Notes: a model not told the origin generated them from the sequence alone. A stretch of 64,000 nt of DNA from an uncultured Gammaproteobacteria bacterium (GCA_964431235.1 CAYSJA010000030.1:1774-65773); one strand, 5' to 3'; positions 3,761 to 38,619 are shown, counted from the first letter of the stretch. A program made the numbers and translations.

Positions 3761-3883
3761 AATATGATTATTATATTTATATTATAGCAAAAATATTTAT
3801 TAATAAAAACAGAAATAATAACAGGGAATAAGGTTTAAATCGAGAAAAAGCTATATTTTTGCTTTATTTTATTCTATAAGAAT

Positions 3884-3911
3884 ACTTCGCATAATGTACC
3901 TTAATAAACGT
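3884..3911. other. candidate dif-like Xer recombination site (28 nt)
   Basis: ACTTCGCATAATGTACCTTAATAAACGT: the left arm plus spacer TCGCATAATGTA matches the E. coli dif XerC arm GCGCATAATGTA at 11 of 12 positions, consensus quoted from memory. It begins ACTTC like B. subtilis dif. It lies 124 nt upstream of the xer gene. Confidence 0.35.
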
Positions 3912-3920
3912 ATAATATAA

Positions 3921-3950
3921 TGAAAGAAAAGGGTTGGTAATATATGCCAA
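3921..3950 (-). terminator. stem-loop (perfect 9-bp stem AAGGGTTGG/CCAACCCTT) followed by T-rich run on minus strand
   Basis: Hairpin read directly; on the minus strand it is followed by TTTCTTTCATT. It is downstream of the ftsQ-like gene and the small ORF. Confidence 0.45.
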
Positions 3951-4076
3951 CCCTTTAATTACAGGCCCCTAACTAAACCAGCAAACCAAACCATCGTAAA
4001 ATGCTATGAAAACAACTAAAACAAAGTATTATAATTAACAAGAAACTAAATATTTTATAAAGAACTATTAATTAAT

Positions 4077-4218
4077 CTAACTCATGATTAAGCCCATAAA
4101 TCTTACTTCGGGCTGAAATAATAAAATAATTTTTATGATTAATAGAAAAATTCCAGCAGAAACTAAAGCAAAGACAAAAATGCCTAATCCAAATAAAAAT
4201 TTAAATACATTTTCCATA
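4077..4218 (-). CDS. possible small hydrophobic membrane peptide (46 aa)
   Basis: ATG-initiated ORF MENVFKFLFGLGIFVFALVSAGIFLLIIKIILLFQPEVRFMGLIMS, 6 nt downstream of the ftsQ-like stop; shorter than the ORF-track cutoff; coordinates approximate. Confidence 0.25.
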
Positions 4219-4223
4219 AATTA

Positions 4224-14749: not shown

Positions 14750-15265
14750 CTATACTTTATCTTTTAAATTTATTATTTTATCAGCTTTTATTTTAGCTTC
14801 CTGTTCTAAAAAAAATTGGTTGATACCAGGAATTATCTTCAGCCATTTTTTTATCAAATTTATTATTTTACCAATCTTTATCTTAGTTTTATCTAATAAT
14901 GAATTTATTTTTTCTACAGTTTCTTCACCAGCCAATTTGAATTCTTGCTGTTTTTTCGGATTAAGCTTTAAAAAAATTTCATGTAAACCTTCGGCTAAAA
15001 TCTTATCTATTTCTTGAGATCGGCGTTTATGAAAACTAAGAGCTTGTCCAGAAATAGTATTTATTTCTGCTTCTTCTCTAATTTTAACTTCTGTTTTATC
15101 AGCCTTTTTTCTAGTATCTAAACTTTCTTCCCTTTTTTCACTGCGCGCTTCTAAATTTTCCGGCGTAATAATATTTTCCTGATTCTCTTCGGATATTTTA
15201 AAATTCTCCGGATTTATTTTTAAATTCTCCGGATTGTTTTTTTTAGATTCACTGGCTATAGCCAT
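14750..15265 (-). CDS. hypothetical K/E-rich protein
   Basis: ORF immediately upstream of, and co-directional with, the coupling-protein-like gene; low complexity with a predicted coiled coil. Confidence 0.4.
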   Translation of the reverse strand: MAIASESKKNNPENLKINPENFKISEENQENIITPENLEARSEKREESLDTRKKADKTEVKIREEAEINTISGQALSFHKRRSQEIDKILAEGLHEIFLKLNPKKQQEFKLAGEETVEKINSLLDKTKIKIGKIINLIKKWLKIIPGINQFFLEQEAKIKADKIINLKDKV

Positions 15266-15285: not shown

Positions 15286-15470
15286 TTACTCTAAACTAAT
15301 AGCTTGAACTGGACAATTTTGCTCAGCATTTTTAGCACAGTCAGTTATCTTTGGATTAATAACTTCTGATTTATTAACAGCGTTCATTTGAAAAGTCTCT
15401 GGGCATATGCTAGCACAAAGACCACAGCCAATACATTTGTTTTTATCTACTTTTACTATAAAATTGTATA
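15286..15470 (-). CDS. 4Fe-4S single-cluster ferredoxin (Pyrococcus/Thermotoga type) lacking a canonical start codon
   Basis: Manual minus-strand translation: IVKVDKNKCIGCGLCASICPETFQMNAVNKSEVINPKITDCAKNAEQNCPVQAISLE*. CxxCxxCxxxCP followed by C(x7)CP. There is no in-frame ATG/GTG/TTG between the upstream in-frame stop and the first Cys, only ATA/ATT codons. Coordinates approximate (+/-2). Confidence 0.6.
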
Positions 15471-15597
15471 ATTATTTTTTAATTATTTTATACTTTTATT
15501 ATAACACAATTTGAAAAAAATAAAACTGCTCTTAATAGCTTTTTATTGGCTAAAAAAAGAATAATTTTTTTATCTTCATACCTAAAATTATGGGTAT

Positions 15598-24059: not shown

Positions 24060-24287
24060 ATCAAAATAATACCATTATAAAAAATAAAAACTAAATTATT
24101 TAATTTATTTTATTTTATCCTGTTTAAGCGGAAAAAGCAATAAAAAAGGCTCTGCAGAAAATAATGTAATAAAAAAAACAAAAATAATAGTAAAATTAGC
24201 TTAGAAAATGAGTTTCCCAACTCAAAGCTAAAAATAAACGTTATTTTGAAAAAATTTATATATTTACCTATAAAAACTTCTCGCTAT

Positions 24288-24316
24288 TGACATAGCCACT
24301 CTTATTCTGTATTATT
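24288..24316 (+). promoter_or_regulatory. sigma70-like promoter upstream of secE-nusG-rplK-rplA
   Basis: TTGACA, 17 nt spacer, TATTAT; followed by the palindrome GTGGCCAC. Confidence 0.45.
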
Positions 24317-24373
24317 TAATTAGATATATAAAGTGGCCACGAGGCTATTTTTAATTACTTATTTTAGCTTTAT

Positions 24374-24553
24374 ATGAATAAACTGATAAAATATATTAAG
24401 GAGTCTAGTATTGAAATGAAAAAAGTGACTTGGCCTAGTAAAAAAGAAACTTACCGCTATACGGTTTTAGTAATTATTATTAGTTTGTCTGTAGCTGCTT
24501 TTCTAGGAGCTTTGGATTATATCTTCAATTTCGGTTTCAAATTAGTAATCTAA
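24374..24553 (+). CDS. secE: preprotein translocase subunit SecE
   Basis: Manual translation MNKLIKYIKESSIEMKKVTWPSKKETYRYTVLVIIISLSVAAFLGALDYIFNFGFKLVI*, SecE-like (VxWPxxxET + TM), directly upstream of nusG. A possible alternative start lies at the internal Met preceded by AAGGAG. Confidence 0.65.
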   Translation: MNKLIKYIKESSIEMKKVTWPSKKETYRYTVLVIIISLSVAAFLGALDYIFNFGFKLVI

Positions 24554-26438: not shown

Positions 26439-26540
26439 TGTAGGTAAGCAATTTTTTAGAAAGGGCGGATCCTTATCCGCTCTTTCTTTGCTAATAAAAG
26501 GTCGTCTTACATTTGTTAAAAATAAAAATAAGTAAACCAA

Positions 26541-26798
26541 ATGAAAAAATTATTCGTCGGCGGTTTGTCTTTCAAGACAACTGAGCAAAGTTTAGCTGAT
26601 GCTTTCGCAAAAGCTGGAAAAGTTTTATCCGCCGTCATTATCACTGATCGCATGACACAAAGATCCAAAGGTTTTGGTTTTGTAGAAATGGAAAATGAAG
26701 CGGATGCTGATAAAGCGATAGAGATGTACAACAATCAAGAACTAGACGGACGCCGCATTGTAGTCAATGAGGCTCGTCCCATGGAAAAAAGATTCTAA
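26541..26798 (+). CDS. RNA-binding protein with a single RRM domain
   Basis: RNP-2 KLFVGGL and RNP-1 KGFGFVEM; 85 aa. Confidence 0.85.
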   Translation: MKKLFVGGLSFKTTEQSLADAFAKAGKVLSAVIITDRMTQRSKGFGFVEMENEADADKAIEMYNNQELDGRRIVVNEARPMEKRF

Positions 26799-31187: not shown

Positions 31188-32891
31188 TTATTTTTTTCTT
31201 TTAGCAAAAAATTTAGTATGAATAAGCTTAGTTGTCATTTTTTTGTCTTTTACCCATTTATAGTAATTTAACATTACCTGATTTTCATGGGCTCGACGCA
31301 TCTTCTTATCAAGATCTATCTTATACAAACCTTGGCTACGTCTCTTCTTAATCTCAAAAGTAGTAGGAAAAGGTTGTCCACCACCGCCTAGGCAACCGCC
31401 AGGACAAGCCATAACTTCAATATAATGATAATTTTTTAATTTAGTAATAATCTTGGGAAAATTACCAATACCGCTTACAACTGCTACTTTTAGTTTTTTT
31501 CTACCTAAATTAACTGTTGCCTCTTTTATTCCTTTTAACCCTCTTACTTCTTTAAATTCTAATTTAGGCAAAATAGTTCTCTCTTTTTTATTTTTATTAT
31601 ATAAAACAACTGCTGAGCGTAGAGCTGATTCCATTACTCCGCCGGAAGTGCCATAAATGGCAGCCGCCCCAGAACCATCGTTAAATAAAGAATTTGTTTC
31701 GCTATCTTTAAGTGTCGCTAGATCAATCCCCTGCTTTTTCAGCATAAAAGCAAATTCTCTTACCGTCAAGACATAATCTACTAAGCGCCTATTTTTATAA
31801 AATAGTTCTTTTCGTCCAGCCTCGTGTTTTTTGGCAGTACAAGGAACAATTGAAAGTATTTTTATCTTTTTGTCGCTTAATTTATTTTTCTTAGCAAAAT
31901 AGCTTTTTATAGCTCCGGCACTATGAATATGAGGTGAACGAGAGGTAGTAAGACAAGGAATGAGTTCAGGGTGATAAAATTCAACATAAGCAACCCAAGA
32001 TGGACAACAAGAAGTCATCATTGGTAAAATCGCTTTCTTGCTATCCAACCTTTCTAAAAGTTCTTCAGCCTCTACCATAGTGGTAATGTCAGCACCAAAA
32101 TTTATATCAAAAACATAAGAAAAACCGATTTTTTTTAAAGCTGTGTTTATTTTTTTAGCACAGTTTGTGCCATAGGGTAAACCAAATTCTTCGCCTAAAG
32201 AAACTCTAACAGCCGGTGCAAACTGAGCTACCATAATATTATCCTTATTTTCAAGGGCTTTTTCTACTTCTAGCCATTGAGTTTGCTCTTGAGCAGCTGC
32301 TACCGGACAAACATTAGTACATTGGCCACAATAAATACAAGCTTTATTCTTATCAGCTACTGGTTTAACCTCCTGTTTGTAGCCATTACCGTCAAAATGC
32401 AAAAATTCAATTCCTTGCAAAGCACAAGCTTCTATGCAATTACCACAATCAATACATTGGCTACCATCTATTTCTACGGCATTGGAAAATTTATAAGTTT
32501 TACGATTATATTTTCTATCAGTAAATTCAGTTATTTTAATATTATAATCACGCGCCAAGTTCAATAAACCACAATTAAAACGCAAAGTGCAATCTGCACA
32601 TTTTTCAATATGAGAAGCAAATAGGAGCTCAATATTCAAACGCCTCATTTTTCTAACTTTCTCTGATTCTGTTAATATTTCCATCCCCTCCCTTACTAAT
32701 GTAGAATCAGCCGCTTGCAATTTCCTTTCCCCTTTTATTTCTATTAAAGATATTCTATCTCCGCCTTTATTTTTTAAATCCGGATGGTAGGAAAGAAAAG
32801 GAATTTTGATATTATTTTTAAGCGCTACTTCTAATATAGTTTCACCTGGCTTAACTATTAATTTATTATTATTAATTTTAATGTGAATCAT
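31188..32891 (-). CDS. hydA: [FeFe]-hydrogenase catalytic subunit HydA
   Basis: H-cluster motifs L1 MMTSCCPSW, L2 VPCTAKKHE, L3 EVMACPGGCLGGGGQP; two 4Fe-4S motifs CIDCGNCIEAC and CIYCGQCTNVCP; His-ligated cluster region HIEKCADC...NCG; no Cys in the first ~95 residues. Confidence 0.85.
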   Translation of the reverse strand: MIHIKINNNKLIVKPGETILEVALKNNIKIPFLSYHPDLKNKGGDRISLIEIKGERKLQAADSTLVREGMEILTESEKVRKMRRLNIELLFASHIEKCADCTLRFNCGLLNLARDYNIKITEFTDRKYNRKTYKFSNAVEIDGSQCIDCGNCIEACALQGIEFLHFDGNGYKQEVKPVADKNKACIYCGQCTNVCPVAAAQEQTQWLEVEKALENKDNIMVAQFAPAVRVSLGEEFGLPYGTNCAKKINTALKKIGFSYVFDINFGADITTMVEAEELLERLDSKKAILPMMTSCCPSWVAYVEFYHPELIPCLTTSRSPHIHSAGAIKSYFAKKNKLSDKKIKILSIVPCTAKKHEAGRKELFYKNRRLVDYVLTVREFAFMLKKQGIDLATLKDSETNSLFNDGSGAAAIYGTSGGVMESALRSAVVLYNKNKKERTILPKLEFKEVRGLKGIKEATVNLGRKKLKVAVVSGIGNFPKIITKLKNYHYIEVMACPGGCLGGGGQPFPTTFEIKKRRSQGLYKIDLDKKMRRAHENQVMLNYYKWVKDKKMTTKLIHTKFFAKRKK

Positions 32892-32910: not shown

Positions 32911-33975
32911 TTATTTTTGTTTATAAATATTTTCTAAATAACTTTTTACAGTCTGGGACAGAGATGATCCTAAAGAACAAAAACTAGCCTGCTCTAAATT
33001 ATCAAGTAAATCAATGAATTTTTTCTTATTAATTTCTCCCTTTTTCAGCATCTCCCTAAGACGATAGCTTCCTTCCCGACAAGGTGTACATAAACCACAG
33101 CTTTCTGTTTCATAATATTTAAGCCAATAATTAAGCAACTTATCCTTATCAGTCTTCTCTTTATTAAAAACCATAATAAAACCAGAGCCTTCAATTGGCG
33201 CTAAAAGCTGATTTTTGTCCAATACTTCGCCGCAAACCTCTCCGCCAAGTATAGCAAAAAAATCAAAATCGGGATAATTATCAGTCGCTCGTAAAATATC
33301 TTCAGCACTAGCATCAGCTGGTAAAGAATAGACGCCCTTATATTTAACCGCGCCCGAAATTGTATATAAACGCTTGCCTTGATATTTATTCTTTGAAATC
33401 AGGCTAACACTATACAAAGTTTCTACATTATTAACTAAAGTTGGTAAATTATTAATTCCCTTTTCGGCCGGAAAAGGCGGTCTTTTTTTAGGCTCCGCCC
33501 TATTTCCTTCTATTATATTCAAAACCGCGCTCTCTTCGCCACCAATATAGCTTGGACTTAACGGTTTGATAAAAAATTTAATTTTTTTAGCTAAAAATAA
33601 ATATTTTTTTTCTGATTTTAAAACGGCAAACAGAGATTTACTGTATAAATTATAGTATTTTCTATTGATATAAAAATAAACTGTCTTTATTTTATTCTTC
33701 CCCAAAAAATTATAAGCCAAATTTATACCATCTATCACTGTTGGTGCTTCATTTTTAAGCAAAAAAGCGTCCTTCTTTACCCCGGGCTCTCCTTCGGCAG
33801 CATTAACCACTATATAACCTCCGGAAACCCTTCTTAAAGCACTTTTAACTATTAGCCATTTTTTAGCAGTTGGAAAATTAGCTCCACCTCGCCCGACTAA
33901 ACCAGCATTTTCAATCTTTTCAATTATACTTTGACTTTTCATGCCTTTAACGCGCCGTCCAGCCGCCATCAACAT
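32911..33975 (-). CDS. NuoF-like NAD(P)H-binding flavoprotein (hydrogenase HydB-like, truncated)
   Basis: GRGGANFPTAKKW, FMN-site NAAEGEPGVKKD, 4Fe-4S N3 motif ESCGLCTPCREG. It is 354 aa, with no N-terminal thioredoxin-like or C-terminal ferredoxin extensions. Confidence 0.75.
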   Translation of the reverse strand: MLMAAGRRVKGMKSQSIIEKIENAGLVGRGGANFPTAKKWLIVKSALRRVSGGYIVVNAAEGEPGVKKDAFLLKNEAPTVIDGINLAYNFLGKNKIKTVYFYINRKYYNLYSKSLFAVLKSEKKYLFLAKKIKFFIKPLSPSYIGGEESAVLNIIEGNRAEPKKRPPFPAEKGINNLPTLVNNVETLYSVSLISKNKYQGKRLYTISGAVKYKGVYSLPADASAEDILRATDNYPDFDFFAILGGEVCGEVLDKNQLLAPIEGSGFIMVFNKEKTDKDKLLNYWLKYYETESCGLCTPCREGSYRLREMLKKGEINKKKFIDLLDNLEQASFCSLGSSLSQTVKSYLENIYKQK

Positions 33976-34733: not shown

Positions 34734-35747
34734 TTATTTTATAAATTTAGATATATAAACAGCCAGCTCAACTAAACGATTGGAATATCCCCATTCATTA
34801 TCGTACCAGGATACTACTTTTAATAAATCGCCACCTATAAGTTTGGTGGAAGGTAAATCAATAATGGTACTATGAGAATTACCAACTATATCAGAAGAAA
34901 CTATCTCTTCATTACAGGCCTCTAAAATTCCTTTTAATTTTCCGCTAGCCGCTTGAGAAAAAACTTTATTAACTGCTTCCTTAGTGGTTTTTTTCTTAAG
35001 CAGATAAACAGCATCGCATAAAGAACCAACCAGGGTAGGAACGCGCATCGCTAAACCGTCAAAGTTATTTTTTAAACTAGGAATAACTTCTGAGGTGGCT
35101 ATAGCCGCACCGGTAGTGGTAGGTACGATATTCAAAGCCGCTGCCCGACCACGACGCTTATCTTTATTAGGACCATCAACTAAATTCTGGCCAGCGGTAT
35201 AAGAATGAATAGTGGTCATTAATGCTTTTTTAATACCAAAACGCTTTTTAATAAGTTCTGTTGCTGGCGCCAAACAATTAGTAGTACAAGAAGCGCAAGA
35301 AACTAAATGATCTGATTTTCTAATCTTTTTTTCGTTAACTCCTAAAACTATTGTTTTTATTTCTTTCCCTTTAGCCGGTGCTGATAGCACCACTTTTTTA
35401 GCCCCGGCTAATAAATGGGCACTAAGAGCTTCTTTATCACGAAATATACCAGTACACTCTAGAACTAAATCAACCTTTAATTTTTTCCAGGGTAAATCTT
35501 TTGGATTTTTATTAGAAAATACCGGGATTCTCTTCTTACCCACAATAATAGAATTTTTGGTGTGGCTTACTTTTTTATCATAAATACCATAGGCGGAATC
35601 AAATTTTAAGAGATGTGCTAAAATTTCAGTATCAGCCAAATCATTAATCGCTACTATGTTGATATTAAAAAAACTATCGTTTATGATTTTAAAAGCGCTT
35701 CGGCCAATGCGGCCAAAACCATTGATAGCTAAATTTATTTTTTTCAT
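34734..35747 (-). CDS. gap: type I glyceraldehyde-3-phosphate dehydrogenase
   Basis: INGFGRIGR and active-site ASCTTNCLAP. Confidence 0.9.
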   Translation of the reverse strand: MKKINLAINGFGRIGRSAFKIINDSFFNINIVAINDLADTEILAHLLKFDSAYGIYDKKVSHTKNSIIVGKKRIPVFSNKNPKDLPWKKLKVDLVLECTGIFRDKEALSAHLLAGAKKVVLSAPAKGKEIKTIVLGVNEKKIRKSDHLVSCASCTTNCLAPATELIKKRFGIKKALMTTIHSYTAGQNLVDGPNKDKRRGRAAALNIVPTTTGAAIATSEVIPSLKNNFDGLAMRVPTLVGSLCDAVYLLKKKTTKEAVNKVFSQAASGKLKGILEACNEEIVSSDIVGNSHSTIIDLPSTKLIGGDLLKVVSWYDNEWGYSNRLVELAVYISKFIK

Positions 35748-38259: not shown

Positions 38260-38619
38260 AATTTTTCTTTTTTACGTCTGCTCCTCTACCTTGAGTTAAG
38301 GAAGAAAATAAAGGCCAACGCCCTAGAAGCATGATGTTTAATTAAAAATATCTGCTAACAGCAGAATTTACTTATATTATTTCTATCTTTAGAATATTAT
38401 ACATTATTGTTAATTTTTGTCAATTTAAAAAATATTATTGTTTTTTCCTTTTTAGATAAACTATTGTACTTTTTAGCGATTTGCCTTTGTTCTGGAATCG
38501 TTATTCCCTAAAAAATACCTCTTTGTCCATATTGGTCAGCTTTTGTCTTAAAAAAACGGTTTGAAATTTTTGCTCTTTCTTTATTTTTTAATCTACAAAC
38601 TAAAATTATGTTAAATATT

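Follow-up and report, generated by a model that had tools for sequence, protein, structure and literature searches.

A highly conserved single-cluster ferredoxin gene of Patescibacteria with ATA at the position of the start codon

The ferredoxin reading frame

The window (the whole stretch of DNA that was analysed, 64,000 nt) carries on its minus strand, at 15459-15286, a ferredoxin ORF of 57 codons, the translation of which is IVKVDKNKCIGCGLCASICPETFQMNAVNKSEVINPKITDCAKNAEQNCPVQAISLE* and agrees with that given in a first-pass annotation made from the sequence. From position 15459 onward the minus strand reads ATA GTA AAA GTA GAT AAA AAC AAA TGT ... TAA. The features of the frame, with the evidence by which each was assigned, are as follows.

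15286-15459, minus strand: ferredoxin coding sequence, 57 codons plus TAA (15288-15286); translation, Fer4_13, and structure and ortholog alignments
15457-15459, minus strand: ATA, candidate near-cognate start or start-loss lesion, at the position of the orthologs' ATG; DNA alignments
15472-15474, minus strand: TAA, nearest in-frame 5' stop; frame reading
15385-15387, minus strand: first canonical in-frame start, Met25, with a 33-aa product without C9, C12, C15 and C19
15435-15433, 15426-15424, 15417-15415 and 15315-15313, minus strand: cluster ligands C9, C12, C15 and C49, respectively; alignment
15405-15403 and 15339-15337, minus strand: additional Cys pair, C19 and C41, respectively; alignment

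The in-frame upstream TAA had been placed at 15489-15491 in the first-pass annotation, and this needs correction: the codon at 15489-15487 is AAA and not a stop, and the nearest in-frame stop is the TAA at 15474-15472, so that four codons, TTA TAC AAT TTT (LYNF), stand before IVKVD. The statement that no ATG, GTG or TTG precedes the first Cys holds true throughout the open frame. The further statement that only ATA and ATT codons are found there is right for ATA and wrong for ATT, the ATT codons being located 5' of the stop. Because ATT, like the three canonical start codons, is absent from the open frame between the 5' stop and the first Cys, the proposed initiation at AUU drops out, and the sole near-cognate codon ahead of the first Cys is the ATA at 15459-15457. 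The warning that the first in-frame ATG would cost three cluster ligands was also correct: a start at Met25, which is the choice of gene callers, yields a 33-aa fragment that misses C9, C12 and C15, and C19 in addition.

Two other positions of the start were considered and rejected. A start further 5' in frame is ruled out by the stop at 15474-15472, the TTG and GTG of the promoter region being out of frame, and a start shifted downstream to a GTG at codon 4, as in the ACG lineage described below, is not available in the window gene, whose codon 4 is GTA.

Family assignment

The Pfam match of the protein is Fer4_13 (E = 6e-14, residues 4-55 of 57). Full-length matches were obtained with the Thermotoga maritima ferredoxin, 1rof/1vjw (E = 1.3e-13; 1rof covers residues 2-57), and with the Pyrococcus furiosus ferredoxin, 2z8q (E = 7e-13) and 1siz (1.9e-11). 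The database search found 57-aa Patescibacteria proteins registered as ferredoxin, with identity up to 85%, nearly all of which start with MVKVD or MIKVD. In an alignment of 26 sequences, C9, C12, C15 and C49-P50 are invariant and form a single CxxCxxC ... CP motif set, and C19 (in the CP motif) and C41 (in CAK) both align with Cys of 1rof and 2z8q, whose equivalents presumably form a disulfide in the T. maritima and P. furiosus structures. The Fer4_13 and full-length structure matches bear out the monocluster ferredoxin of T. maritima/P. furiosus type that had been recognized at first sight, and on this basis the assignment of the predicted protein as a single-cluster [4Fe-4S] ferredoxin (Fer4_13) can be regarded as secure.

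The likeness to the ferredoxins of these two thermophiles includes a size of ~57-66 residues, one [4Fe-4S] cluster and the CxxCxxC...CP ligands, and the additional Cys pair of the Thermotoga ferredoxin is found at aligned positions in the window protein too. The window protein has CxxCxxC like Thermotoga and unlike Pyrococcus, whose wild-type ferredoxin has CxxDxxC. The window protein differs from both in a loop joining the two halves that is a few residues shorter, and its gene belongs to a mesophilic-looking Patescibacteria genome with a 31% GC content and has ATA as its start codon.

The ATA codon and its orthologous positions

DNA alignments place the window ATA in register with the ATG (MVKVD...) of L004/L013, L173, L174/175 and L176/177, and codons 2-5 (GTA AAA GTA GAT) are identical between the window gene and its close orthologs. 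The comparison with orthologs that the first-pass annotation had suggested, whether ATA aligns to ATG, therefore gave a positive answer, with an exact alignment in syntenic Patescibacteria loci; this alignment fits both AUA initiation and a very recent pseudogene. All the Patescibacteria loci of MVKVD type among 80 GTDB species-representative loci have ATG at the start position. No diverged lineage sharing ATA was found: the codon is confined to haplotypes with 99.9% identity, and the more distant relatives, of which L173-L177 are the closest that were found, all carry ATG. When we searched for a closer sister, using the fast-evolving neighbouring gene as query, none with ATA was obtained, and the nearest relatives that turned up were only 64-67% identical and all had ATG; a metagenome scan gave no match above 77% identity. 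All members of this Patescibacteria (Falkowbacteria-like) population that were sampled have ATA.

The first-pass annotation had also proposed a sequencing error, and an erroneous base in the assembly would mean that G is the true base and that the gene has a normal ATG start. We consider such an error very improbable, because nothing specific speaks for it beyond the general prior that applies to metagenome assemblies, and several observations speak against it. L001 and L002, which are contigs of two further JGI samples, are identical to the window over ~420 nt covering the ferredoxin locus and the intergenic sequence, ATA included, and show three differences each from the window elsewhere (6.1 and 3.3 kb); because the positions of these differences are unshared, the two contigs are independent haplotypes, and at least three haplotypes carry ATA. 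Eleven JGI contigs have the 33-aa truncated call (P0053), with 3300077564 and 3300077319 among the source samples, the ATA site is outside any homopolymer (TTT ATA GTA), and no full-length ATG allele was found among 5.8 billion protein clusters, in which the best full-length match is 85% identical. The independent contigs of the two other samples effectively exclude the error that had been proposed.

The best explanation appears to be a genuine G-to-A transition by which the conserved ATG start became ATA, and it forms part of a reading of the locus, given below, whose chance as a whole we put at about one half. A start codon can be lost through two transitions, of which ATG-to-ATA is one, and the direction of this change matches the AT-biased drift of the genome. 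The amino acid changes specific to the window ferredoxin are M1I, G17S (GGC to AGC), M18I (ATG to ATA), V38I (GTA to ATA) and D28V. Four of the five (M1I, G17S, M18I and V38I) are G-to-A on the coding strand, which fits a strong mutation pressure towards AT in this genome of 31% GC. G17S and D28V hit positions that are unanimous in the nine closest relatives, and other lineages show similar counts; by such lineage-specific counts the window gene is no outlier, on a number of sites that is too small for discrimination.

Decoding of ATA in this genome

If ATA were read as Met, as in many mitochondria, the differences at codons 1 and 18 would be silent, and ATA indeed stands at M1 and at M18 (in CAGMCP), i.e., at two of three positions where the ferredoxin consensus has Met. 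Such a change of the genetic code is nevertheless the least probable of all explanations weighed here, and we give it almost no credence. The ATA codons of the window GAPDH, when aligned with the T. maritima enzyme, correspond to Ile five times, Val three times and Lys once, and, when aligned with the Thermus thermophilus enzyme, to Ile four times, Val four times and Leu and Lys once each, with no Met in either comparison; by a rough estimate, this Ile/Val pattern favours Ile over Met several-thousand-fold. In codon usage of the window, ATA accounts for 3.3% and ATG for 1.6%, and the reassignment would raise Met to 4.9% and leave only 5.6% Ile, an implausible composition at 31% GC. Among the start codons of the window (n = 57) there are 50 ATG, 4 TTG and 3 GTG, and no gene starts with ATA; Ile is found at position 18 also in the orthologs P0005 and P0006. 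In this genome ATA has kept its meaning as isoleucine.

A genome-wide use of odd start codons was also considered and rejected, no other conserved-looking start-less ORF being present in the intergenic gaps of the window. As a separate observation on the GAPDH gene (34734-35747, minus strand), its residue 216 is Ile (ATA, 35100-35102) in the TTGAA-K-A motif, at a normally conserved position where both PDB homologs have Lys; the difference is one base, AAA to ATA.

Promoter, leader and operon

The following features surround the coding sequence.

15498-15506, minus strand: extended -10 element, TGtTATAAT, conserved in orthologous loci at a constant distance of ~37-38 nt from the start codon
15460-15497, minus strand: AT-rich 5' leader of ~38 nt without Shine-Dalgarno; ortholog alignments and fold
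14750-15265, minus strand: next gene, 171 aa, no Pfam family, 20 nt past the ferredoxin stop

The extended -10 element is omitted by the consensus promoter scan because it has no good -35 hexamer; the start of transcription is predicted to be near 15491. The leader is predicted to be unstructured (MFE -3.5 kcal/mol, z = 0.18). An AT-rich leader of ~37-38 nt without Shine-Dalgarno is found also in ATG-bearing orthologs, and a Shine-Dalgarno is missing from most window genes as well; when the window leader was compared with those of the orthologs, neither a Shine-Dalgarno nor another initiation signal that might compensate for ATA was found in it.

Leader and promoter are conserved far above synonymous sites, and the TGnTATAAT box is recognizable across many Patescibacteria loci. 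For example, ~70 nt directly 5' of the start are identical between L009:2922-2991 and L018:1431-1500, with a pS of 0.68 and a pN of 0.09 in the coding sequence. This level of conservation suggests that the leader may have a sequence-specific role, e.g., as a translation enhancer or for binding of a regulator. The conservation of promoter and leader does not count in favour of the ferredoxin itself, since both are required for the downstream operon too. A known RNA element in the leader was rejected on the basis of zero Rfam matches, of which there are none anywhere in the window, and of the lack of significant structure. A leaderless mRNA transcribed from TACAAT at 15468-15463 is also disfavoured, since this box is only 3 nt from ATA and arises from a window-specific insertion of 1-2 nt.

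No terminator is predicted between the ferredoxin and the 171-aa gene, and from this and the 20-nt gap we regard the ferredoxin as the first cistron of an operon. A 100%-identical copy (P0072) of the neighbouring gene is present in NCBI. The gene order is conserved as an array of divergent rpmA (L27) on the 5' side, the ferredoxin, a ~170-aa protein, a DUF8128/TrwB-like ATPase and dnaX.

Selective constraint and the state of the gene

Compared with L004, the ferredoxin has 82.5% amino acid identity, a dN of 0.098, a pS of 0.62 and a dN/dS of ~0.075, and its dN is the lowest in the neighbourhood (L27, 0.176; ATPase, 0.163; S41 peptidase, 0.199; next gene, 0.318). The low dN/dS indicates strong constraint for essentially the whole branch, and it is an average over a long branch. 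The ATA haplotypes are too similar for selection after the mutation to be measurable, and with ATA found only in a near-clonal population there is no evidence that selection has kept the gene since the mutation. The ORF has no second lesion: neither a stop nor a frameshift is present, in a ~30% GC genome, and all six Cys are kept.

These data may be explained by a very recent pseudogene, in which ATG-to-ATA ended productive translation and neutral drift has since had no time to add a second lesion; any AUA product would then be too scarce to matter, and the ferredoxin would be dispensable or replaced by another. We take this to be a serious possibility, to which we assign somewhat less than an even chance. 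It agrees with the loss of the canonical start, the confinement of ATA to a near-clonal population whose diverged relatives all have ATG, and the lack of a Shine-Dalgarno or of a compensating change relative to the orthologs; in addition, AT-biased drift is expected to produce mutations of just this class, and the promoter would be kept anyway for the downstream genes. Redundancy is possible too, since some related MAGs have two copies: L019 (JBAZKO010000023.1) and L020 (JBAZKO010000015.1), which belong to one Patescibacteria MAG, carry two nearly identical ferredoxin copies with the same leader, so that paralog redundancy exists in the group and bears on the neutral loss of one copy. The pseudogene explanation fits less well with the finding that this is the most constrained gene of its neighbourhood, which argues for its importance, and with the intactness of the rest of the ORF in all 11 contigs and at least three haplotypes, all with ATA and with no ATG allele. 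No decayed copy was present in ~170 related loci, although the search method disfavours finding such copies, and AUA initiation as measured in bacteria is low yet above zero.

The reading that we place first, with a probability of about one in two, is a leaky, low-expression (hypomorphic) allele initiated at AUA, and not a designed regulatory start. The operon mRNA would still be made from the conserved extended -10 promoter with its unstructured AT-rich leader, and the ferredoxin mRNA with it, the gene being placed first in the operon. AUA would be the only translation start that still gives a cluster-binding protein: the initiator fMet-tRNA would pair there with a third-position mismatch and give the normal MVKVD... 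protein, in a yield that may be a fraction of the AUG level (few percent to few tens of percent where measured in bacteria). Near-cognate initiation never falls to zero and the mRNA has to be there, so that production of some full-length ferredoxin from AUA is very likely; on the reading placed first, the AUA would in fact be used and its product would be important to the cell. The sequence alone fits both AUA initiation and a fresh pseudogene, each of which is a known kind of phenomenon.

Known AUA and AUU start codons

In Escherichia coli, AUA has 1-2% of the activity of AUG, with a range of 0.02-3% (bioRxiv 10.1101/063800), and the natural AUA starts of Staphylococcus aureus infC, ccpN and citZ have ~10-30% (PMC13009471). 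An AUG-to-AUA mutant of phage T4 rIIB retains ~15%, i.e., its translation is down ~85%, and an older hydrolase case of AUA had ~7.5% of AUG (PMC5499595). A near-cognate start of Ile type should be read by the initiator tRNA, with a lower yield and with IF3 sensitivity (PMC13009471; PMC5499595).

S. aureus infC, ccpN and citZ (AUA) and cvfC1 (AUU), and E. coli infC (AUU), have an Ile-type codon at the position of the relatives' AUG, as the window gene does. The nearest analogy is citZ of the S. aureus NCTC 8325 lineage, a metabolic gene with a lineage-specific AUG-to-AUA change and ~10% expression. The natural AUA/AUU starts differ from the window gene, however, in being backed by a strong or extended Shine-Dalgarno (PMC13009471), which the window ferredoxin does not have, and, except for citZ, in being conserved across species, whereas the window ATA is limited to one population. 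They are also supported by ribosome profiling or reporters, and the window start is known from sequence. The T4 rIIB mutant resembles the window gene in having a single G-to-A change of the start codon in an otherwise intact gene; it is a laboratory mutant, whereas the window ATA is the only allele seen in a natural population, in a highly constrained gene.

Other ferredoxin loci with unusual starts

In a sister lineage within the Patescibacteria, represented by L009:2992-3165 and also by L010, L011 and L012, from four metagenomes, ACG is found at the ferredoxin start position. These loci read ACG GTT AAA GTG GAT, and the GTG three codons on is taken as the start by gene callers (P0036, 54 aa); in the sister locus of the L009 lineage, L018:1501-1674, the two codons are ATG and GTA. 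The ACG thus resembles another loss of the start codon, independent of that in the window, which was possibly rescued by the new GTG.

A separate clade of five loci with ATT at the start position was also found.

L109:1495-1677, ATT-start clade
L110:520-702, ATT-start clade
L111:1495-1677, ATT-start clade
L114:1495-1677, ATT-start clade
L115:943-1125, ATT-start clade

All five members have an invariant ATT at the start, ~7 nt past a GGGGTGA/GGGGTGG Shine-Dalgarno-like element, at 75-90% amino acid identity and 67-80% identity at third positions. Indels of 1 nt shift upstream ATG/GTG codons in and out of frame, so that these are in frame in some members only, and the gene calls have inconsistent N-termini (MGGNIP..., VIRKSEKWGGSIP..., VKVD...). 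The clade probably uses a conserved AUU start, for which the comparative evidence is good. An upstream cgaaagaTTTATAAT element in this clade is a putative counterpart of the archaeal BRE/TATA box, which it resembles.

One further locus, L168, is a Clostridia-like homolog on a 1.2-kb metagenome contig, with TTT at the position of its relatives' ATG after a strong Shine-Dalgarno (aaggggaggtaatt TTA TTT AAG GCT...) and with no canonical start ahead of the first Cys; since the contig is short and of low coverage, this TTT may be erroneous.

Homologous ferredoxins thus appear, from these comparisons, to tolerate near-cognate starts. The ACG lineage, with its nearby GTG, and the ATT clade, with its strong Shine-Dalgarno, each have a compensating feature, and the window gene has neither. 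That AUA is a true selected start, as one case of a recurrent near-cognate habit of monocluster ferredoxins (ATA, ACG and Shine-Dalgarno-backed ATT), is conceivable and in our judgement unlikely. If AUA were selected, it would keep ferredoxin synthesis low and make it respond to IF3 or growth state, and with the ultra-conserved leader without Shine-Dalgarno, bacterial non-AUG initiation would be found in a context that has not been described before.

The hydrogenase and other genes of the window

The window also carries a hydrogenase and an associated subunit.

31188-32891, minus strand: HydA-like [FeFe] hydrogenase, 567 aa (Fe_hyd_lg_C 2.9e-83, N-terminal 2Fe-2S (Fer2_4) and two 4Fe-4S domains, Fe_hyd_SSU)
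32911-33975, minus strand: short NuoF-like FMN/NADH subunit, 354 aa (Complex1_51K 1e-30)

In the first-pass annotation the ferredoxin was regarded as the only candidate low-potential electron carrier for the nearby hydrogenase. A scan of the window ORFs for the CxxCxxCxxxCP motif found the ferredoxin and the hydrogenase only, and the ferredoxin is the sole small standalone ORF with the motif, which upholds one part of the claim. The remainder is weakened, because the scope is 64 kb, ~16 kb separate the ferredoxin from the hydrogenase, which belongs to another gene cluster and is flanked there by a CCA-adding enzyme and an SDR, and the hydrogenase has a NuoF-like, NADH-binding protein next to it. 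We infer only that a partnership of the ferredoxin and the hydrogenase is plausible. The NuoF-like protein is unusually short, with only the FMN/NADH domain and the 4Fe-4S region, and no NuoE/HydC-like gene adjoins the hydrogenase, whose neighbours are the SDR and the CCA-adding enzyme; the hydrogenase and the NuoF-like protein may form a minimal NADH-linked hydrogenase.

The annotated genes of the window are otherwise housekeeping (aminoacyl-tRNA synthetases, EF-Ts, S2, GAPDH, pyruvate kinase and TGT), and no tRNA gene is present in the window. Three gaps of 300-460 nt (3761-4223, 24060-24367 and 38260-38619), in a genome that is tightly packed elsewhere, have no convincing ORF, tRNA or Rfam match. 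A small SecE-like ORF (24368-24550, plus strand) and an ORF for an RRM-type RNA-binding protein (26532-26795, plus strand) were noticed in gaps other than these three.

Significance

The consequence for wider biology is modest. If the AUA is used, metabolic reconstructions of the organism silently lose its main soluble carrier of low-potential electrons through automatic annotation, as in the JGI data, where the 33-aa fragment is registered. The locus would then also offer a natural case of initiation at a non-AUG codon without Shine-Dalgarno, in a phylum in which the initiation of translation has been practically unexplored. If the gene has only just become a pseudogene, gene loss would have been caught at its first step in a streamlined Patescibacteria genome, in the gene that is otherwise the most constrained locally. 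In either case, small ORFs that are start-less and perfectly conserved should be compared with their orthologs before they are discarded.
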